Origin: Myxococcota bacterium
GTDB taxonomy: Bacteria; Myxococcota_A; UBA9160; JAFDDA01
Length of the DNA: 64,000 nucleotides
Reading direction: 5' to 3'
NCBI GenBank assembly: GCA_965228475.1
Contig: OZ245817.1
Location: 1 to 64,000, forward strand
This document shows, in pieces, positions 34,251 through 44,091 of the stretch; positions within the stretch are counted from its first letter, which is position 1, and each line of letters begins with the position of its first letter. The notes beneath the pieces were generated by a model. That model worked only from the letters and a program-made list of their open reading frames with translations. It made no database searches and was not told the DNA's origin. The position numbers and the translations under genes are program-made.

Positions 34251-35267
34251 TCACGTTCCGTCGAAGTCGTGCTCCGTGGTCAGCTGCCGTGTCATGAGCA
34301 GGCTGCGCGCCTGCTCCGGCCGGACCTCGCCGTCGAGCAGGGCCCGGACCATCTGGGTGATGGGCATGTCGACGCCGAGCGCATTGGCCAGGCCGCAGGC
34401 GGCGCGGGTCGTGCGGATGCCCTCGGCCACCTCGTTCATGTCCGCGACGATCTCCGCGAGCGATCGGCCGCGGCCGAGCTCGAGCCCGACCTTCCGGTTG
34501 CGGGAGAGGTCGCCGGTGCAGGTGAGGACCAGGTCGCCCATGCCCGAGAGGCCCAGGAAGGTGGTCGGTTTGGCGCCCATCCGGGTGCCGAGGCGGGTGA
34601 TCTCGTTCAAGCCGCGGGTCATCAGCCCGGCCCGCGCGTTCAGTCCGAGTTCGAGGCCGTCGCAGATGCCGACGGCGATGGCGACGACGTTCTTGAGCGC
34701 CCCGCCGAGCTCCACGCCCACCACGTCGTCGTGGGAGTAGCAGCGGAACCAGTCGCAGGAGAGCGTGGTCTGGACCGCGATGGCGTAGGCCTCCTCCTCG
34801 CAGGCCAGGGTCACCGAGGTCGGCTTGCCGTCGGCGATCTCGCGGGCGAAGGACGGCCCGGAGAGGAACACCAGCCGGGCGTGATGCTCCTCGGGCAGGC
34901 AATCGCGCAGGACCTCGTCCATGCGCGCGCCGGTCTCGACCTCGATCCCCTTCACGGTGGAGACGAGGATGGCGTCCTCGGGCAGGAGCGGCGCGGCGCG
35001 CTTCATCAGCTCCCGGACGCCGTGGCTCGGGACGGCGAGGATCACCATCTCGCGGCCCGCGAGGGCCGTGGCGAGATCCGCGGTGGCGCGGACGTTCTCC
35101 GAGAGCGGGACGTCGCTCAGATAGTTCGGGTTGTGACGGTCGCGCTCGATGGCCTCGGCCGTTGCCGGGTCGCGCGCCCAGAGCGTCACGTCGTGCTCGC
35201 GTGCGGCGAGCATCGCCAGGCAGGTGCCGAAACTGCCGGCGCCGAGCACCGCGACGGGAGTGGTCAC
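34251..35267 (-). CDS. gpsA: NAD(P)H-dependent glycerol-3-phosphate dehydrogenase
   Basis: GAGSFGT, SGPSFARE, GGALKNV, GDLVLTC..SRN, AEG. Confidence 0.96.
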   Translation of the reverse strand: MTTPVAVLGAGSFGTCLAMLAAREHDVTLWARDPATAEAIERDRHNPNYLSDVPLSENVRATADLATALAGREMVILAVPSHGVRELMKRAAPLLPEDAILVSTVKGIEVETGARMDEVLRDCLPEEHHARLVFLSGPSFAREIADGKPTSVTLACEEEAYAIAVQTTLSCDWFRCYSHDDVVGVELGGALKNVVAIAVGICDGLELGLNARAGLMTRGLNEITRLGTRMGAKPTTFLGLSGMGDLVLTCTGDLSRNRKVGLELGRGRSLAEIVADMNEVAEGIRTTRAACGLANALGVDMPITQMVRALLDGEVRPEQARSLLMTRQLTTEHDFDGT

Positions 35268-35438
35268 GGCGGGCAGTGTATCAGCCTGGCACGAAGCATC
35301 GGGCCGCTCGTGCCCCCGGGGGCCGCGAATCGGGTGCGGTCGCCCGGCCCGTGGAGGGAGTCAATTCGACGACTGTACGCCCGCGTTGCTCCCGGGGTAG
35401 TCTCAGCAGGCTCGTGCTGAGCTTGGAGCAAGGATGGA

Positions 35439-35636
35439 ATGTTCAGGAGGGTCGTGCAGAACGTCGGCATCATGATCGCGACGGCTGCACTCGTGGCCGG
35501 ATGGGGGCTCCTGGATCGGGAGTCAGGCCTCGAGAGCTGGTTCGAGCTACGCGAGCAAGTGAGAACCGCGACCGAGAATCTCGATCGCTACAAGCTCGAG
35601 GCAAGAAGTCTTGACCGAGAGTCGAGAGGGCCCTGA
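35439..35636 (+). CDS. FtsB/DivIC-like TM + coiled-coil segment, probably the frameshifted N-terminus of the next gene
   Basis: TM helix then DRESGLESWFELREQVRTATENLDRYKLEARSLDRE, an FtsB-like pattern; adding one G near 35621 joins it to DUF4062. Confidence 0.6.
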   Translation: MFRRVVQNVGIMIATAALVAGWGLLDRESGLESWFELREQVRTATENLDRYKLEARSLDRESRGP

Positions 35637-37000
35637 CCCTGGCGCGCAGTTCCCCTTCAGATGCCGCTCGAGTCTTCATCTCTTCCACGTCCGAGGATCT
35701 TCGCGAGGACCGCGCCAGTACGATCCGGATGCTCCGGCAGCTCGGGTGCAATCCTATTGCGATGGAGGATTTTGCGCCGGGTGGTTCGCCCCCACTACAG
35801 CGTTGTGTCCAGGAAGTCCGCGCGTGTGATGCCTACGTCGGGATATTCGCCTGGCGTTACGGCTACGTGCCAGAGGGGCACGAGAAGAGTATCACCGAGC
35901 TCGAGTACGAGGCCGCTCTCGCGGCAGGGCTGGAAGTGTTTATCTTCCTCATCGACGAAGATTCTCATAGCCCAGACGATGAGATCGGCACGCGCTTCGA
36001 GGCTGTTAGAGACCTCCGTGCCAAGCTGATGAAGAATCACGTTGTCGCTTTCTTTCGGGGTGCCAACGACTTGGCGCCCAAGGTAGTTACGTCGGTTGCG
36101 AAGTGGTTGGCCGGGTCCCGGCGCGAAGATCGCTCGCCGAGTGTTCCTGGCCTGCTCCCCTACCTGAGCGACAGAGATCGGCAAGTCCTCGAGGTCTTTA
36201 GGCTCTTGGAGCAGCGCTCAGCGGGTCAACGCCGCCCCACCTTCATCCTGATGCATGGTGGTTTGGAGCAAGCACACGACACGTTCGTGGATCGACTCAT
36301 TCATCAGGAGCTACCACGGCTTCTCAGGCTGGACCCCACGACCGAGCGAGTGACGCACTTGCCATTGCGATGGCGCGGGGGCGGCACGAGAACAGATCGG
36401 CTCGATTCGCTGGAGCTGCAGCTTGCGCAGGCGCTGGCGAGTCCTTCGCTGGAAGTCCAAGCGCCGAGCACCCTCGGATCGGAGTGGCGGGAGATCGCTT
36501 CCGCCGGGTCCGGGGTACTACTGATCACTTCGATGATCGGTAGCCACGAGTGGCACCACGACGAGGAGGATCTCATCGACTCTTGGATGGGACTCTGGCG
36601 AGGCTTCCCCGATTTGGCACCGGCGAGGTACATCGTTGTGATTGTTGGGGTCCAGTACCGTTCCTCCCCCGAATCTGGGTGGTTGTTTCGAAGAAGGAGC
36701 CGTCGTCAACACGCTGAGATTCGTCGCAGCCTTCGGGCCCTGACTGCCCGAGGGATGGATCGACTTGTCGTCGGCCTGCTGCCGGAACTCTCCAGCGTGA
36801 CCGAAGGGGATGTCGAGGAGTGGATGAAGGATCGGGTCCCAGAATTCTGTGAAGCAACTGGGCGTGACCCCGTGTTGATTCGGGAGCATCTGCTTCCCAA
36901 GGTGAGGGATCTGTTTCGTGATACCCGGGCTCCGATCCCGATGGCGACATTGGGCCCGCAGCTTCGTATGTTGCTCGCGGAAGAGGGCAAGAAGATATGA
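35621..37000 (+). CDS. DUF4062 (TIR/NDT-like) + inactive STAND (iSTAND) protein
   Basis: Frame is open from 35615. RVFISSTSEDLREDR..MEDF..YVGIFAWRYG..SITELEYEAA (DUF4062); LPYLSDRDRQ, HGGLEQAHDTFVDRL, LPELSSVTEGDVEEW (iSTAND-like). The first ATG (35729) lies inside the domain. Confidence 0.75.
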   Translation, partial: VERALTLARSSPSDAARVFISSTSEDLREDRASTIRMLRQLGCNPIAMEDFAPGGSPPLQRCVQEVRACDAYVGIFAWRYGYVPEGHEKSITELEYEAALAAGLEVFIFLIDEDSHSPDDEIGTRFEAVRDLRAKLMKNHVVAFFRGANDLAPKVVTSVAKWLAGSRREDRSPSVPGLLPYLSDRDRQVLEVFRLLEQRSAGQRRPTFILMHGGLEQAHDTFVDRLIHQELPRLLRLDPTTERVTHLPLRWRGGGTRTDRLDSLELQLAQALASPSLEVQAPSTLGSEWREIASAGSGVLLITSMIGSHEWHHDEEDLIDSWMGLWRGFPDLAPARYIVVIVGVQYRSSPESGWLFRRRSRRQHAEIRRSLRALTARGMDRLVVGLLPELSSVTEGDVEEWMKDRVPEFCEATGRDPVLIREHLLPKVRDLFRDTRAPIPMATLGPQLRMLLAEEGKKI

Positions 37001-37965
37001 ACAGACGGATCTTCACGACCGCTGACTCGCCGGATGGTTCTTGGGGCTCGTCGATCGATCGTCGACCTCTGGTAGCGCCTGAGGGATACCAAGCTGACGA
37101 TCGACTAAGGGATGCGGTCAGCGTATCCCTTCATCTCGGCCAGCCGCTTCTATTGACCGGAGAACCGGGAACCGGGAAGACGCAGCTGGCCTTCTCACTC
37201 GCTTGGGAGCTTGGCCTTGGGACTCCGCTGGGGTTTGATACGAAATCAACCAGCACGTCACGAGATCTATTCTACTCCTACGATTCTTTGGGTCGCTTTC
37301 ACGCTGCTCAGGCCGGGGGTGGAACCGCGAATCCGATCGACTATCTCCACTTCAACGCCCTCGGTCTCGCTGTCCTTCGCGCGACGCCACCCGAGAGCTA
37401 CTCCGATCTCAAGGATGCCCTGGGCGAGACTGCGCATCGGAAGCGGTCGGTGGTTTTGATCGACGAGATCGATAAGGCGCCCCGTGATTTCTCGAATGAT
37501 CTCCTCGCCGAACTCGAGGAGATGTATTTTAGGATTCCCGAACTGGCGAATCTCGTGGTCGCGGCAGACCCGGAGTATCGCCCCATCGTTGTCGTCACTA
37601 GCAACTCCGAGCGAAATCTTCCGGACGCGTTCCTGCGTCGCTGCGCCTACCACCACATCGAGTTCCCGGATCGAGATCGCATGCAGAGAATCGTCGCAGC
37701 TCGCCTCGGTGAACGAGTCGCTAAGGACCGGGAGTCGCTGGATCTAGCTCTTGATTTCTTTGAGGCCCTACGTGACCCAGCAACGACGCTCGCAAAGAAG
37801 CCCTCGACCGGCGAGTTCCTAGTTTGGTTGCGAATTCTGTCGGACCGAGGCGTTGGGCGAAACCCGCGGGAATGGGGGGCGACCCTGAGCGCCCTCGTGA
37901 AGACATCCGATGATTCGAGGCGGGCTCTGGGCCTTCTAGCCCGTTTCCGCACCCTGTCCGAGTAG
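36997..37965 (+). CDS. moxR: MoxR-family AAA+ ATPase
   Basis: PLLLTGEPGTGKT, VVLIDEIDKAPRDFSNDLL, TSNSERNLPDAFLRRC; ATGA overlap with the iSTAND gene. Confidence 0.92.
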   Translation: MNRRIFTTADSPDGSWGSSIDRRPLVAPEGYQADDRLRDAVSVSLHLGQPLLLTGEPGTGKTQLAFSLAWELGLGTPLGFDTKSTSTSRDLFYSYDSLGRFHAAQAGGGTANPIDYLHFNALGLAVLRATPPESYSDLKDALGETAHRKRSVVLIDEIDKAPRDFSNDLLAELEEMYFRIPELANLVVAADPEYRPIVVVTSNSERNLPDAFLRRCAYHHIEFPDRDRMQRIVAARLGERVAKDRESLDLALDFFEALRDPATTLAKKPSTGEFLVWLRILSDRGVGRNPREWGATLSALVKTSDDSRRALGLLARFRTLSE

Positions 37966-37970
37966 ATTCC

Positions 37971-40900
37971 TTGCTCCCGTCCGAAGAGTCACTCTTCGAC
38001 CTGCTCGACGAGCTGCGCTCCGCGGGACTTGGGATCGGGACAGAACACTACATTCAGGCGCAAGAGCTGCGTGTCTCCTTCGAGCAAGGCGCGCGATCGC
38101 AGAGCGACTTGTTGTCGTGGCTTGCACCTTTGTTGTGCTCGAGCCCTTCCGATCTGGAGACATTCTCAGAGGTTGCGGAATCCTGGAGCTCTCGAAGCGT
38201 CAATCGTGGCCGTCGCGAGTTTCCGTGGAGCCTCGGCCTCGGAAAGCTCCGTCGAGGGTTCTACGGCTGGCTAGGTCGCTGCCTCGGGAGATCGATTGGG
38301 CGTTGGTCGGGTGGCGCCCGCCTACTTACCGAGCTCAGGAAGCCAGACCGTCTTGGGGCCGTCACCGTAGGGTTGGTCGTTGGGGGCCTGGGCGTTCTCT
38401 TCGTCAGGAACGAGATCCTCGATCTCCGCTACGAGCTAGGCGAGATCTCCCAACAGGTCCTGGCGTTGGACGCCGAGGTTCGAAGTGTTCGAGGGCTGAC
38501 GGGCGGGGACGTCGTGCTTGATTCACCAGACCCGAGTTCCGTTTCCGTGACCGGCGTGATTGTCGACGAGGATGGACAGCCACTAGAAGGCGCGCAGGTC
38601 GAGATCCTAGGCGCACTCGGGGAGACTCGGTCTCTCGAACTCCATCTCGGCCCGCCCTTGGGGGTCGGTTTTCAGGGAAGCAACATCGTTGCGGTGGGCT
38701 CCGAAGAGGGGCGCCCGAAGGTGGTTCGCTGGAACCCAGAGCGTGCAGAGCCAGAGACTTGGTACCTGGAAGCTGATGCACCGAGGCATGCGGAGCTCTT
38801 TCCCGACGCCAGCTCGGTCATTCTGTCGTCTGAGCAGGGAGAGATTTCTCTCTTCGACATCGGGTCCAGCCAAAGCCGTTGGCGAAAGGTGATCCGGGGA
38901 CAAGTGCTTCGAGTGGCATCGTCTCCCCTCTCGACCGGCAGAGCATTCCTTGTTGTGTCCTGGAATCGAGGAATTCTCAGTGCCGAATGGTTCACGATCA
39001 ACGGCAACGGAGAGTCAGCGTCCCTCGTACGGACCATCGAGTCGGATCTCCCAAAGCTGATCGAGACCGAAGTATCCGAGGTCGACTTCCGAGTTCTCGC
39101 TTTGGTCGAGAGTTCCTCAGAGGTCATTGCCTTGGGAATGAGCCGGGCGGGTTCAGAACGGTGGTCACTGCCGGTGGTGGGGGCAGTGGACCTGGGAATG
39201 TCGGGTCAACGCTGGGTGGTCGCTCGAGAGGACTCGATCGAGCTCTACTCGCGAGGGTCGTTGGTCTTGGAGCTCGACGAGGTTGCCGGCGTCAGTGACG
39301 TCGACCTGCGCGAGGACGCTCTGGTCATCGAGACGTCCGAAAGGAGCCTAGCAGTCGTTGATCCGGAGTCTGGAACTCTGAACGTGGATTCTCGAGGGCC
39401 CCCGGACGGCCCGGTCGCGTGGCTCATAACCCAAACGACGATGCATGGTGAAGACCCAGTCTTGCGACGATGGGTTCACGGTCGTCCGACAGAAGCGACG
39501 CTTTCGATCAACAGTCAGAGCGGCGGCCCGAGCCCCGGGAGAGACGGTCACGGCGCGCAGTATCAAGTCGCCCCTGTGACCGCGCTGACTTCCGCGGTCC
39601 GACCCGATGGGCTCGGGGTTGCGACTCTCGGCCTTGGCGGGGTCCTTAGATTTCATGGAGTGCCCCTCGTGAGGACGACGAATCCTCTCGGGCGTTTCCG
39701 TGCCAAGTATCGTTCTCTTGGCGCCTTGACGTTGGTGCGAGCCGAGGCTGCGCCGTACGAATCGCGGACACTTCTGCTACCCGTCGAATCGTCGAGGGCA
39801 GACGTTCAGATTTCCCTCGACGTCGCACAGGTCTCCTCCGGGAAGCCGCTGGTAGAGTCGGTCTTCCTCGGTGTAGCTGTTGCGGTTGCAACGACGCTGG
39901 GCGTCTTCCTGTTGGCTCTGGGACGCCCGCGGGCCGTTGCTGAGCGGGCAGACTCTACGGCGCAGGACGATGCTCCTTCGCTCGCCCTGGCTCAGGGCGG
40001 AGAAAGGGAGCTGATCGATCCGCATGTGATCGACCGAATCAGCCAAGTAGGGGGCGTAGGCGGATCGTCGTTGCAGGCTCGCCTGGACGTTGAAGCGACG
40101 GTCAGGGCAACGGCTGAAGCAGCGGGCCACTTCAAGCCCATCCACGAGGAGATCAGTAGCGATGAGAGGTACCTCGCGCTCATAGATGCGCGCGGGGCGG
40201 GAGACCATCAAGCGCTACTGGTCCTCCATCTGCTCGAGACGCTCGCGAGCCGAGGCTTCCAGGCCACGTGTTTCACATTCCACTCCGATCCGAGGGTCTG
40301 TCGATCGGTTGATTCAGAATCGGATCTTTGGTCGTTGAGTCGCCTTGCCGCGAAGTACTCTGAGCATTCGCTGCTGATCTTTTGCAATCCGGAACAGTGC
40401 TGCGATCTCACGGCTGGAGGCTTGCAGCCCTGGGTTAAGGGGCTGGAGAGTTTCCGCTCCCGCGCAATCCTCGATCCACAGCCGGGAATGCTCTCTGGGG
40501 AGCTGGTGGACTCCCTCACCTCCGCGAACATCTCGGTCGTTCCCTCAACGCCGGAGGGCGTCGAGAGGTTGCTAGCAGGGGCTCGGCATCCGGAACGGGA
40601 GCCTCGCGAACCTCACTCCCCCATCCTTCTGGAACGGCCCCTTCGATGGCTCGACGAAGCCCCTCCACCCGAAGCCGATCAGGACCGTCTCTGTGTGGAG
40701 CTCATTGCGAGCCTTGGCTTCGATGACTTCAATCTGCTTGCAGCATGCGCCGTTTACCCGATCCTCGACTGGCCCCTCACGATCCTGCTTCTGAGGGCAC
40801 TCGACGCCTCGAAGCCCCTGGAGGCGCGTTTTGGGCAGCTACTCAGGTTCTCCCGGCTCCCTTGGTTTCGTGTGGGTTGGATGCCGGACTGGTTGCGCAG

Positions 40901-42812
40901 TCGGCTCCTCCGGGAGCTCCCCGTAGAAACGGAGCGGTCGATCCGTTCGGCCCTGCGGCTTCACATTGGAGCTGCAGGCGACGACGCCCTGAGAGCGACG
41001 GTTCGGCCACGAGGATTGCGTTGGCGGGCAGCAGGGTCTGGGGTGAGCCGGGAGATCGGAGAGGACCGGGTCTTTGTCGGTTTCATGATGGGGAGCCGCG
41101 GTCGTGGCCTCGACGTCGAGCTGAGGAGCGCTCCAGTGTTGCGCTTGATGCTAGGAGCGGGCGTCCAGAGGCTATTCGGGATCTGGCGGGTCCTCCGCGG
41201 GAGAGCGGTGCGGCTGATCGACGTCAGGGTAGGTCGCCTGCGCGACAAGGCGCTGGCTCCGGGCATCTCGTTGATGAGCAGCGCAACGGATCGACGAACG
41301 TTGTCCCGGGTGTATGCCCTGGGCCTGCTAGGCGTTGCGATAGCCGCCGTTCTGGGGGGGCGAGCGATCTATCTGGCTCAGCCTCGCCAAGGTCGCGACA
41401 ACGTTCGGGCCTCGACGATAGTTGTACCGCCGGTAAGGGGAGAGATTCTGGATCGCGATGGTCGTCGTCTCGCGGTTTCCGTAGAGGCGCCCTCTGTCTA
41501 CATAGACAGCGGCTTCGAAGAATCATCGATTCTATCGCTTTCTCGGGCGCTCGAGCTGGACGAGGGCTTCGTGCGCGGTCGGTTCGAGTCGATGAAGAAC
41601 TTCAGTTTCATCCAGCGGTGGGCGTCCGAGGAGGCGGCTGAGCGGGTGCAGAGTCTCGGTATCCCTGGTGTTGGGGTTCTGCGGGAGCCGAGGAGAATGT
41701 ACCCGGAAGGGACTCTGGCTGGTTCACTGGTCGGTTTCGCGAACATCGATGGCGATGGAGTTCGTGGTATCGAACAGGCAGAGGACAATTGGCTCAGGGG
41801 CAGAGAAAGACGAGTCCTGTTTGAACGCGACGCTCGAGGCAAAGTCATGGCCGACGAGATGCTCGACCCCCGCCAGTGGGCCGGCGGAGACGTGCAGCTG
41901 ACACTTGACCTCGCGACACAACGCCGCGTGGTCGGCGAGTTGTCCAAGCTTCTCACCTCTACTCGATCCGGCGGGGCGGTCGGTGTGGTCTTGGGCAGTC
42001 GGAGCGAGGTTACGGCACTCGCGCAGGCTCCCTCGTTCGATCCGAACCGCTTCCGATCGACCTCCTTTGCGGATACTCGGGCGAAGCCGTTCCTCGACTC
42101 TCACCAACCGGGGATGTCGCTTCTCCCGGTATTCCTGGCGATTGGACTGGAGAAGGGCGTGCTAGGCATCGATGCCTTGGAATCGTTCGACCCGGAGGAT
42201 CCGAGAACCCGCAGCACTGCGAGAGTATTGGCGAGAAGGCTCGGTCCGCGCGGGACTTCCGAAGGCCTTCGTGAGGCCGGGTTCGGGCGGGTGTCAGGAA
42301 GCGGCTTCCCTGGTGAGTCCGCGGGAATTCTGCGGCCCTGGGAACAGTGGCGTCCGATCGACCTCGACGCGATCTCGGCTGGATTCGGGATCAACGTGAC
42401 TCCGATCCAGCTCGCATCCGCGCTCTCGGCCCTTGTGGGCGGCGGAGTCCAGAGGTCGCCCGAACTCGTGCTCACACGCCGAAGGCCTGGAGGGCAATGG
42501 CAGGCCCTTCCTCAATCAGATTCTCGACGCGTCGTCTCTGAGGGTACGTCTCAAGCGATCACCCGCTGGTTCGAGTCGCGCTCCATTGAGCTGATCGGAG
42601 GACGATATTCGAGCTTCGAGGTCCGGGCCGAAGCGTTGAGTTCCAGTACGGGCGAGTTCGACGATCAGATCTTCTGGAGCCTCGGCGTGGTATTTGGGCC
42701 GAGTCCTACCGTGATCGTTCTCCAAGTAACGGACCCAGGTACCGGCGTAGAAGACGCTCTCGGAGCGGCCTTCCGGGGAGTCGCCTCTAGGATCCTCGAG
42801 TCTTCTCCATGA
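37971..42812 (+). CDS. MoxR-associated vWA-type protein fused to an FtsL-like helix, carboxypeptidase-regulatory/beta-propeller region and an inactive FtsI-like PBP domain
   Basis: LRSAGLGIG..LAPLLCSS N-domain; LDVEATVRAT..YLALID..DHQA..AACAVYP..RLPWFRVGWMPDWLR (vWA component); RGEILDRDGRRLAVS, RRMYPEG, GIEQ, TLD, VTPIQLA (class B PBP). Confidence 0.8.
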   Translation: MLPSEESLFDLLDELRSAGLGIGTEHYIQAQELRVSFEQGARSQSDLLSWLAPLLCSSPSDLETFSEVAESWSSRSVNRGRREFPWSLGLGKLRRGFYGWLGRCLGRSIGRWSGGARLLTELRKPDRLGAVTVGLVVGGLGVLFVRNEILDLRYELGEISQQVLALDAEVRSVRGLTGGDVVLDSPDPSSVSVTGVIVDEDGQPLEGAQVEILGALGETRSLELHLGPPLGVGFQGSNIVAVGSEEGRPKVVRWNPERAEPETWYLEADAPRHAELFPDASSVILSSEQGEISLFDIGSSQSRWRKVIRGQVLRVASSPLSTGRAFLVVSWNRGILSAEWFTINGNGESASLVRTIESDLPKLIETEVSEVDFRVLALVESSSEVIALGMSRAGSERWSLPVVGAVDLGMSGQRWVVAREDSIELYSRGSLVLELDEVAGVSDVDLREDALVIETSERSLAVVDPESGTLNVDSRGPPDGPVAWLITQTTMHGEDPVLRRWVHGRPTEATLSINSQSGGPSPGRDGHGAQYQVAPVTALTSAVRPDGLGVATLGLGGVLRFHGVPLVRTTNPLGRFRAKYRSLGALTLVRAEAAPYESRTLLLPVESSRADVQISLDVAQVSSGKPLVESVFLGVAVAVATTLGVFLLALGRPRAVAERADSTAQDDAPSLALAQGGERELIDPHVIDRISQVGGVGGSSLQARLDVEATVRATAEAAGHFKPIHEEISSDERYLALIDARGAGDHQALLVLHLLETLASRGFQATCFTFHSDPRVCRSVDSESDLWSLSRLAAKYSEHSLLIFCNPEQCCDLTAGGLQPWVKGLESFRSRAILDPQPGMLSGELVDSLTSANISVVPSTPEGVERLLAGARHPEREPREPHSPILLERPLRWLDEAPPPEADQDRLCVELIASLGFDDFNLLAACAVYPILDWPLTILLLRALDASKPLEARFGQLLRFSRLPWFRVGWMPDWLRSRLLRELPVETERSIRSALRLHIGAAGDDALRATVRPRGLRWRAAGSGVSREIGEDRVFVGFMMGSRGRGLDVELRSAPVLRLMLGAGVQRLFGIWRVLRGRAVRLIDVRVGRLRDKALAPGISLMSSATDRRTLSRVYALGLLGVAIAAVLGGRAIYLAQPRQGRDNVRASTIVVPPVRGEILDRDGRRLAVSVEAPSVYIDSGFEESSILSLSRALELDEGFVRGRFESMKNFSFIQRWASEEAAERVQSLGIPGVGVLREPRRMYPEGTLAGSLVGFANIDGDGVRGIEQAEDNWLRGRERRVLFERDARGKVMADEMLDPRQWAGGDVQLTLDLATQRRVVGELSKLLTSTRSGGAVGVVLGSRSEVTALAQAPSFDPNRFRSTSFADTRAKPFLDSHQPGMSLLPVFLAIGLEKGVLGIDALESFDPEDPRTRSTARVLARRLGPRGTSEGLREAGFGRVSGSGFPGESAGILRPWEQWRPIDLDAISAGFGINVTPIQLASALSALVGGGVQRSPELVLTRRRPGGQWQALPQSDSRRVVSEGTSQAITRWFESRSIELIGGRYSSFEVRAEALSSSTGEFDDQIFWSLGVVFGPSPTVIVLQVTDPGTGVEDALGAAFRGVASRILESSP

Positions 42813-43885
42813 GGAACTCCGCACCCATCGCTCCGTGCCTATTGCTGTCTGGTCTCGGCATCTTGATGGCATATAGCCTCGGCGCTCCACACGGCGTTGA
42901 AAGAGAGCGGTTGCTCGCGCAGCTAGCGGGAGTCGTGGCGGGTGCCATCGCGGGTTTCTTGGTGTACAGGGTGCCGATACGTCTCCTGCACGACGCCAGC
43001 CCGCTCCTGCTCGTAGTGAGCATCTCTCTTACCATCGCAGGGCTGTTGTTTGGCCGTGAGGTGAACGGTGCCAACCTCTATCTCCATCTGTACGTGTCAG
43101 ACCTCGGATTCGGAATCCGGCACGGGTACCTCAGTGTCCTCCTTGCAATGGTATGGATTGCTAGGAGCGTTCGTGACGCTCGCACAGGCCCCGGGATTCC
43201 GTGGCCCCTCTTGCTCGTCCTCTTCCCGGGAGGAGCAATGCTCGCTGCTGGGGACCGAGTGTCGTTTGTACTCCTCACTACGATCGTGGTTCTCGCCCTG
43301 TTCGTGACCGGAGTTCGGATTCGTTGGCTCGTAGGGGCAATGACGATCTCGCTCTCGGTGATGGCTCTCTGGTTGGCGAACAACCCCTATCTTTGGACCC
43401 GCTTTGCTGGGTTTCTTGCACCGTGGGATCGTCGAGAGTACGAGGCCTACTCCCTGGTGCAATCGTTCGTTGCATTCGAGCGTGGAGGCCTCTTGGGGGT
43501 TGGCTTGGGAGACAGTCGCCAGAAACTGTTCTATCTCCCCGAAGCCCACTCTGATTTCGTGCTGGCTGTCTTGGCCGAGGAGCTAGGTGCGGTGGCCGTC
43601 TTGGTGGTGATCCTCTGTTTCGTGTGGATCGGGAGGTATGGATGGCAGGCAGCGATCCGATCGCACACGCTTTTTTCGAGGGCTCTTGCCACAATCACCA
43701 CCGCTTTCCTCGTGGTCCCTGTCACGTTGCACGCCGCGTCCGTTATGGGATTGATCCCGACGTCGACTTTTCCTTTGCCACTGGTCTCCTACGGCCGCAA
43801 CCATCTGCTTGTCTTTGGCGCCGCCATGGGAGTCCTTTGCCGCATCGACAGAGAATCGGCCCGAATGGACGGAATGGACGAGTAG
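42809..43885 (+). CDS. ftsW: Divergent FtsW-like SEDS membrane protein
   Basis: QSFVAFERGGLLGVGLGDSRQKLFYLPEAHSDFVLAVLAEELG, LPLVSYG; about 10 TMs; ATGA overlap. Confidence 0.82.
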   Translation: MRNSAPIAPCLLLSGLGILMAYSLGAPHGVERERLLAQLAGVVAGAIAGFLVYRVPIRLLHDASPLLLVVSISLTIAGLLFGREVNGANLYLHLYVSDLGFGIRHGYLSVLLAMVWIARSVRDARTGPGIPWPLLLVLFPGGAMLAAGDRVSFVLLTTIVVLALFVTGVRIRWLVGAMTISLSVMALWLANNPYLWTRFAGFLAPWDRREYEAYSLVQSFVAFERGGLLGVGLGDSRQKLFYLPEAHSDFVLAVLAEELGAVAVLVVILCFVWIGRYGWQAAIRSHTLFSRALATITTAFLVVPVTLHAASVMGLIPTSTFPLPLVSYGRNHLLVFGAAMGVLCRIDRESARMDGMDE

Positions 43886-44091
43886 GGTCCTATGTGCCCT
43901 GCGCAATAAGCCGTCTTCGTGTCGCAGCGGCTTGCCTACTGGGCGGCTCGATGCGTTGACGGGCATTTTGCTCGCGGCTAGCTTCCCCGAGATCCCTAGA
44001 TCTATCGCGGAGTTCCGCCACAGTCCGCACACCAGTCCGCACGCGTCTTGGCGCGCCTTCGCCGCCCGCCAGAAGCTGGAGGGGCTCCTCG

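Follow-up and report, generated by a model that had tools for sequence, protein, structure and literature searches.

iSTAND ternary systems, as described by Kaur, Burroughs, Iyer and Aravind (eLife 2020; PMC7159879), combine a MoxR protein, a vWA-type protein and an inactive-STAND (iSTAND) protein. In the accessible text of that paper, the iSTAND protein may carry N-terminal TIR-type effectors, and in a subset of the systems the third protein has membrane-proximal, cell-wall-associated C-terminal modules. The DUF4062 domain is the subject of three bioRxiv preprints of 2026 (10.64898/2026.05.01.722283, 10.64898/2026.09.04.749371, 10.64898/2026.06.25.731849), whose available parts describe it as a TIR-like NADase that depletes NAD+ in abortive-infection defence, needs a conserved glutamate and, as DUF4062 or "NIR", occurs in the defence proteins Swarozyc, Vulcan, Vesta, Avs2 variants and Evangelion. 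We analyzed the first 64,000 nucleotides (nt) of contig OZ245817.1 from a Myxococcota bacterium (GCA_965228475.1), hereafter the window, in which a DUF4062-iSTAND gene follows a small FtsB-like open reading frame (ORF) on the same strand and in another frame. A first-pass annotation of the window had proposed that the two are one base away from an in-frame fusion. On balance we favor a reading in which a standalone DUF4062-iSTAND gene has probably suffered a frameshift close to its start, beside a separate, truncated FtsB-like ORF, in an acquired iSTAND/MoxR island.

The locus resembles the iSTAND ternary systems, as far as these are set out in the accessible text of PMC7159879, in the order of an iSTAND protein, MoxR and a large third protein (an order common to eight related loci), in the N-terminal TIR-type effector on the iSTAND protein, and in a third protein with transmembrane (TM) segments and a cell-wall-related C-terminal module. 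A MoxR-type AAA+ ATPase is encoded directly next to the iSTAND gene. In contrast to those systems, the iSTAND gene of the island is cut off from its start, the third protein has no Pfam vWA hit (E ≤ 1), and the cell-wall module is an FtsI-like penicillin-binding protein (PBP) that lacks the catalytic motifs and has a SEDS gene after it. Neither "penicillin" nor "transpeptidase" appears in the main text of PMC7159879. With the DUF4062/"NIR" NADases, in the available parts of the preprints, the locus shares a full-length DUF4062, perhaps the catalytic Glu, the position of the effector N-terminal to a STAND-type module, and fold matches to the TIR-NLR RPP1 and to TIR-STING. Unlike them, it couples the effector to an inactive STAND and a MoxR ATPase, and it has no usable canonical start; neither "iSTAND" nor "MoxR" occurs in the available text of 10.64898/2026.05.01.722283 or 10.64898/2026.09.04.749371. 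The FtsB-like ORF in front of an iSTAND system is found in this island only (none of 79 DUF4062 loci).

The two frames at the junction (35439-37000) are as the first-pass annotation had read them, which we confirmed by script and by translation. In frame 0, an ORF of 65 amino acids (aa) ends with ...EARSLDRESRGP, the stop being the TGA at 35634-36 and the protein tail DRESRGP. Frame 2 is free of stops from 35615 to 37000 (461 codons) and starts with PRVERALTLARSSPSDAARVFISST... Its earliest ATG, GTG or TTG is the ATG at 35729, which lies within the DUF4062 domain; the remaining start-like codons of this frame in 35600-35740 are CTG 35633, CTG 35639, ATC 35678 and ATC 35723. It is thus correct that no ATG or GTG precedes the first strand of DUF4062. 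A start at 35729 (residue 39, counted from 35615) removes the first 20 positions of the domain, because the domain begins at residue 19, and the column of this annotated start Met holds Ala in 63 of 84 aligned homologs. It also holds that one base is enough for a fusion: adding a base anywhere in 35615-35633 joins frame 0 with frame 2. A scan of 35200-35800 found no promoter or terminator, and the only repeats found that might explain a lesion or a phase switch are short and at chance level. The features of the locus are collected in the table.

Table. Features of the DUF4062-iSTAND locus and the surrounding insert; positions are those of the window, and frame 0 is the frame of the small ORF.
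Feature	Position	Strand	Basis or remark
Low-GC insert of ~8.7 kb between gpsA and nuoA	35283..43950		GC content, GC at third codon positions (GC3), gpsA-nuoA spacing in relatives
Small ORF, 65 aa, FtsB/DivIC-like N-terminal part (membrane helix and coiled coil)	35439..35636	+	own hidden Markov model (HMM), G029 relative
TGA in frame 2	35612..35614	+	upstream boundary of the open DUF4062 frame, within the 3' end of the small ORF
GAGAGGG (core GAGG 35626-29), CTG 35633 and CTG 35639	35624..35641	+	frame 2, read from the sequence
Predicted relic start codon of the DUF4062-iSTAND gene	35661..35663	+	in frame 0, not in that of the gene body; Met column of homologs
Probable frame-break site, CC between ATG and GCT CGA GTC	35664..35665	+	homolog starts and alignment
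DUF4062 (TIR-like NADase)-iSTAND gene body	35666..37000	+	frame 2, no internal stop; Pfam, structure model, fold matches
Internal ATG	35729..35731	+	start in the database gene call (423 aa, ORF 35729..37000)
MoxR-like AAA+ ATPase	36997..37965	+	Pfam AAA and AAA_5; start overlaps the preceding stop (ATGA)
Third component, 1613 aa	37971..42812	+	middle part conserved; TM-like segments; class B PBP module (FtsI-like) at the C-terminus
SEDS protein, extra copy	42809..43885	+	Pfam FTSW_RODA_SPOVE, E 3.7e-52; ATG overlaps the preceding stop

The body of the DUF4062-iSTAND gene appears whole. Translated from 35615, it matches Pfam DUF4062 (PF13271) over the full model (positions 1-82 of 82 on residues 19-101) with 86.9 bits against a cutoff of 24.7 (E 1.1e-24), and Pfam iSTAND (PF19995) over positions 1-143 of 163 on residues 182-330 with 35.6 bits against a cutoff of 24. 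An AlphaFold model has a mean predicted local distance difference test (pLDDT) score of 90.3, with strand 1 at residues 19-24 and helix 1 at residues 27-42; residues 2-13 are unstructured (pLDDT <50). The fold is TIR-like. In a Foldseek search of the PDB the top three matches are chains of the TIR-NLR RPP1 (E ~1e-6, probability 1.00), TIR-STING stands at rank 18, and ZAR1 and Avs4 are among the lower-ranked matches; the TM-scores are low, since the query was the whole two-domain model. In the model, a start at 35729 costs the domain strand 1 and the larger part of helix 1. Among the residues lost are S23 and S24, each found in all 84 homologs, and D28, L29 and R33, each kept in 83 of the 84. 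Every position that is invariant in our alignment of 85 sequences (below) is kept in the window protein, and the rest of the gene bears no sign of decay. E97 is invariant (85 of 85 aligned sequences) and may be the catalytic Glu mutated in the DUF4062 preprints. From sequence and model we predict that an intact product would pair a TIR-like NADase with an inactive STAND scaffold, under the control of MoxR and the third protein. PADLOC has no family for the DUF4062-iSTAND protein, the third protein, the SEDS protein or the small ORF, and gives only generic AAA hits for MoxR; NCBIfam gives nothing for the DUF4062-iSTAND protein or the small ORF.

Homologs indicate where the gene should begin. 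A full HMMER search of 1.84 billion representative proteins gave 11,711 proteins at E ≤ 1e-3. The best 150 of these are mostly DUF4062-iSTAND proteins of 420-460 residues, and in most of them query positions 18-19 align to positions 2-3 of the homolog. Of the 149 matches listed, self hit excluded, 128 have the start of the first-strand motif at residue 3-7 (102 of them at residue 4), 19 have it further in and two lack it; the N-terminus reads M-A-[KR]-[IVL]-[FY] in 60. In an alignment of the window frame, from 35615, to 84 homologs, 77 of these have a residue in the column of window residue 17 (codon 35663-65), and in 56 it is Met; no more than 13 have one in any column of residues 1-16. Some of the longer N-termini have an internal Met at the consensus place and for this reason look like over-extended gene calls. 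All nine full-length loci that we examined from other genomes have an ATG start of their own (eight M-A-K/R, one M-L-R), with an in-frame stop 0-27 codons upstream of it. Such independent starts (nine of nine loci, 128 of 149 matches listed, Met in 56 of 84) do not bear out the lost in-frame fusion that the first-pass annotation had placed at 35616-35625.

A canonical start two to six residues before strand 1, which is a trait of DUF4062-iSTAND proteins, is missing from the window frame; a fitting ATG is present, out of frame. At the DNA level, homolog genes start ATG GCN (AAA/CGN) (ATY/GTN). The window has at the same place ATG (35661-63), then CC, then GCT CGA GTC TTC, that is, the Ala-Arg-Val-Phe of the family with an ATG two bases out of register. 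ATG occurs 78 times in the 8668 positions of the island, and the chance of finding it at one of two to four suitable out-of-frame offsets is ~0.02-0.04. The break is most likely a gain of 2 base pairs (bp), or a loss of 1 bp (one G) from an ATG-GCC start, judging from the homolog starts.

We propose that the DUF4062-iSTAND gene formerly began at the ATG now at 35661, and that a 1-bp loss or 2-bp gain right behind this codon shifted the gene body to another frame. The mutation would sit in the DNA and not in the assembly. Ribosomes starting at 35661 would now read an out-of-frame ORF of 122 codons (35661-36029), which contradicts the codon-position GC pattern of the region, and a start at 35729 would yield an NADase domain that lacks strand 1 and the greater part of helix 1. 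The gene would then be recently inactivated or at best weakly expressed, and the system disabled or blunted. Most likely, the DUF4062-iSTAND protein, having no usable start, is not made, which would fit a recent loss of a costly effector from an operon that is otherwise whole. Recent inactivation had been one of the explanations offered in the first-pass annotation and is the one we retain as the best reading, but not at the site it proposed: the lesion would lie behind ATG 35661, ~43 nt downstream of 35621.

The letters of the junction are well supported. We compared 34900-37100 with the Logan contigs of three sequencing runs from three samples and two studies (X2, X3 and X4) and found no other letters and no gaps. 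The whole stretch lies in a single contig in X2 (k-mer depth 45.5) and in a single contig in X3 (depth 253.3), and X4 has 34941-35725 in a single contig at a depth of ~9. Run X1, with a small share of words, covers just the gpsA part (34928-35175) and is uninformative on the junction. We therefore find it highly improbable that a sequencing or assembly indel hides a true genome with an intact start or an intact fusion, an explanation the first-pass annotation had also raised. The genome is a single 5.0-Mb contig, a form often obtained from long reads, and long reads are prone to indel errors; against this, an assembly slip is unlikely because the base count is the same in three assemblies and the suspected site, a run of two bases, is no long homopolymer, and the other genes of the island are intact. 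A confirmed sequence together with homologs that have an independent start is what the first-pass annotation had named as evidence that would count against its fusion, and both are found here. Runs X2 and X4 are filed as organism A and X3 as organism B, in two studies, yet all carry this same 2.2-kb stretch. The strain may be common to several cultures, or one of the organism labels may stand for a mixed sample.

Several points weigh against a relic start followed by a frame break. The match to the three runs is one of contigs and not of raw reads, and one of the runs may be the source of the genome itself; contigs do not allow minor variants or the independence of the runs to be judged, and the records do not give the library type. 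ATG 35661 lacks a Shine-Dalgarno-like motif upstream, and several homologs likewise have no obvious one. The nearest relative in the searched libraries has at most 41% identity, so the ancestral state is reconstructed from distant homologs; in 40 other genomes of the same order, the DUF4062-iSTAND query gave only three partial matches, none of them in the same genus or family. Finally, a GAGG lies 9 nt before CTG 35639, and some translation in the right frame is possible.

This last point leads to an alternative that we consider unlikely, in which the gene has lost its own ATG and the protein is still made from CTG 35633 or CTG 35639. The GAGG at 35626-29 would promote initiation, or ribosomes would re-initiate after the small ORF, and the product would carry an N-terminal extension of 9-13 residues. 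The two CTGs are the sole start-like codons of frame 2 upstream of strand 1, and could conceivably act as non-canonical starts; GAGG lies 3 nt before the first of them and 9 nt before the second. A short extension would probably be tolerated, given that 13 of the 84 homologs begin ahead of the consensus Met column and that the model leaves residues 2-13 unstructured. The gene body is intact with all its invariant residues, but a recent frameshift predicts this equally well. CTG is a very rare and weak start in bacteria, which argues against its use here. The overlap of CTG 35633 with the stop of the small ORF (CTGA) carries no weight, since every TGA stop is preceded by some NTG and a C alone gives the non-canonical start.

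A fusion of the FtsB-like ORF with DUF4062-iSTAND, either broken by a 1-bp loss near 35621 or produced there by a -1 ribosomal frameshift, is in our view very improbable. It draws on the single added base that would join the frames and on a pattern seen by eye in the frame-2 stretch after 35621 (ERA-L ... LAR), which recalls the C-terminal motif of FtsB. This pattern is rare (20 occurrences in the 9.59 million residues of a six-frame translation of the genome) but was picked after seeing the data. Reading through the break does not raise the score of the FtsB HMM (37.8 or 37.3 bits against 38.2 bits without read-through), an HMM of the FtsB C-terminus alone gives the frame-2 fragment -0.1 to 0.6 bits, and the fragment is absent among 8466 six-frame hits. 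When we aligned the 19-residue frame-2 fragment to 24 FtsB C-termini, it was equalled or beaten by 1812 of 6000 random fragments by maximum score (30%), and 977 of 6000 (16%) were at least as good by mean score. We therefore reject a continuation of the FtsB C-terminus in frame 2, on the read-through score, the C-terminal HMM and the unbiased alignment, and with it the claim that the heptads of the coiled coil run on into the DUF4062 frame.

Comparative evidence points the same way. No fused or membrane-anchored form was found among the 149 matches listed and the nine related loci: none of the 149 has an N-terminal extension of membrane grade (the hydropathy of the 19-mer in the small ORF is 1.52, the maximum among them 1.31), and none of the nine full-length related loci has a small membrane ORF upstream of its DUF4062-iSTAND gene. 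The small ORF has no match in any of the 79 DUF4062 loci. A word-based search among longer proteins gave 178 candidates, none of which matches the small ORF at E ≤ 1, a weak negative. FtsB is oriented with its N-terminus inside and its C-terminus outside the cell, and a fused NAD-cleaving domain would therefore lie outside the cytoplasm, away from MoxR.

We also rejected a programmed -1 ribosomal frameshift. Programmed frameshifting is known from the genes prfB and dnaX, and the junction is like these in its two overlapping frames one base apart and in the CCC_TGA that ends the upstream ORF. Unlike them, it needs a shift of -1 (frame 0 to frame 2), has neither a heptamer nor a structure, and has no homolog with the two-frame layout. 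No slippery heptamer of the form X XXY YYZ is present in 35613-35636, the RNA downstream of the junction is less structured than shuffled sequences (z +1.86), Rfam gives no hit on the junction region, and the two-frame layout is found in none of the nine related loci and none of the 149 matches listed.

The small ORF ends in CCC TGA (35631-35636), a sequence at which E. coli ribosomes are prone to shift by +1. This leaves the arrangement unexplained, because a +1 shift enters frame 1 and not the DUF4062 frame 2. The near-fusion appears incidental, because the small ORF and the putative relic ATG are both in frame 0. It needs a frame coincidence of one in three and 16 stop-free frame-2 codons upstream (~0.6 at the base composition, by our own estimate).

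The name FtsB-like, given to the small ORF in the first-pass annotation, fits its N-terminal part but not its C-terminus. We built an HMM of 105 positions from 24 FtsB-like ORFs of genomes of the same order, and the small ORF matches positions 7-65 with 38.2 bits. The matched part comprises an N-terminal membrane helix, a D-x-E-S-G-L motif and a coiled coil, as in FtsB/DivIC. In contrast to FtsB/DivIC, the conserved C-terminal third is missing: the C-terminal motif (of the DPFA-ERAIRE-LGLARPGE type in this order) occurs in no frame, and Pfam finds no family on the 65-aa ORF at E ≤ 10, DivIC (PF04977) included. Among 40 genomes of the same order, 33 have FtsB-like ORFs that match the small ORF at E ≤ 1, mostly weakly. 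The best relative is an ORF of G029 (39% identity, E 1.1e-7), which itself matches Pfam DivIC at E 1.1e-9; by count, the coiled coil of the small ORF is about one heptad shorter than that of the G029 protein. A word-based near search with the small ORF gave only the ORF itself, a weak negative.

The small ORF looks like a gene in its own right, with a Shine-Dalgarno-like AAGGA/GGAG upstream of its ATG and a coding-type codon-position GC pattern in frame 0. The host has a full-length FtsB/DivIC-like gene of its own at 1660633-1660944 (103 codons from GTG; Pfam DivIC E 1.3e-6, just under the cutoff), and the island ORF is therefore an additional, shortened FtsB-like copy. We rejected the possibility that it is a remnant of a host gene: the same-genus genome G001 and the same-family genome G002 have nothing homologous between gpsA and nuoA, and the ORF has the composition of the island. 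We take the small ORF to be a separate neighbor gene and not a broken-off part of the DUF4062-iSTAND gene. It may be a working short protein or a truncated relic, and both readings stand.

If the frameshift is as we propose, the 423-aa gene call of the database, from ATG 35729, is in error and conceals the lesion along with the first strand of the domain. The annotation should then read as a gene frameshifted at its start, neither shortened nor fused. The locus would be a straightforward case in which a costly effector of abortive infection, a TIR-like NADase, was silenced by a minimal mutation and the remaining operon stayed intact, in an island missing from one genome of the same genus and one of the same family. 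The junction itself is ordinary. More unusual is the island, which joins an iSTAND system with diverged FtsB-, FtsI- and FtsW-like parts.

The island stands out from its surroundings in composition. GC is 0.59-0.65 between ~35400 and 43900 and ~0.70 in the flanks, and GC3 is 0.63-0.74 in the five ORFs of the insert compared with 0.95 in gpsA. In G001 and G002 the insert is absent and the distance from gpsA to nuoA is ~300 bp. Homology to the host stops at 35282 and is back by 44076; by visual inspection, a promoter-like stretch begins at ~43950. No integrase, transposase or flanking repeat was noticed at the insert, where no systematic search for them was made. The five genes are, in order, the FtsB-like ORF, DUF4062-iSTAND, the MoxR-type AAA+ ATPase, the 1613-codon ORF and the SEDS protein, and the best reading of the insert is a horizontally acquired "ternary" conflict island of the iSTAND/MoxR type.

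DUF4062-iSTAND followed by MoxR is found in nine related loci, with a MoxR 46-66% identical to that of the island. Residues ~800-1080 of the third component match the third gene of nine related loci (eight of the nine DUF4062-iSTAND/MoxR loci, plus L013), while the PBP, the SEDS protein and the small ORF are in none of the nine related loci. The third component has TM-like stretches at residues 127-145, 631-649, 922-940 and 1111-1135. Its PBP module gives Pfam hits to PBP_dimer and Transpeptidase, and its NCBIfam hits of the FtsI/PBP2/SpoVD type are all below the cutoff. This FtsI-like C-terminal part is 43-44% identical to the FtsI of the host (3109757-3111316). A pattern search of residues 1151-1613 found none of the motifs SxxK, SxN and K[TS]G, and the module looks like a catalytically dead PBP fused to a component of a conflict system. 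The ORF begins with a TTG at 37971, without an obvious ribosome-binding site.

The island thus holds diverged copies of three division proteins: FtsB (the N-terminal part), FtsI (in which no catalytic motifs were found) and FtsW. One could imagine that the FtsB-like peptide is a working part and that the NADase system of iSTAND and MoxR is wired to a copy of the division machinery (the FtsB-like peptide, the FtsI-like PBP module without catalytic motifs that is fused to the third component, and the extra FtsW-like SEDS protein), so that it would sit at, or monitor, the septal cell-wall synthase, with DUF4062-iSTAND kept at a low, controlled level through re-initiation at a CTG behind the FtsB-like ORF; we regard this as a long shot. 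The SEDS protein is nearer to FtsW than to RodA (213.9 bits for NCBIfam ftsW against 152.7 bits for rodA, both below cutoff). It is 38% and 31% identical to the two other copies in the genome, the closer one being that at 3116932.

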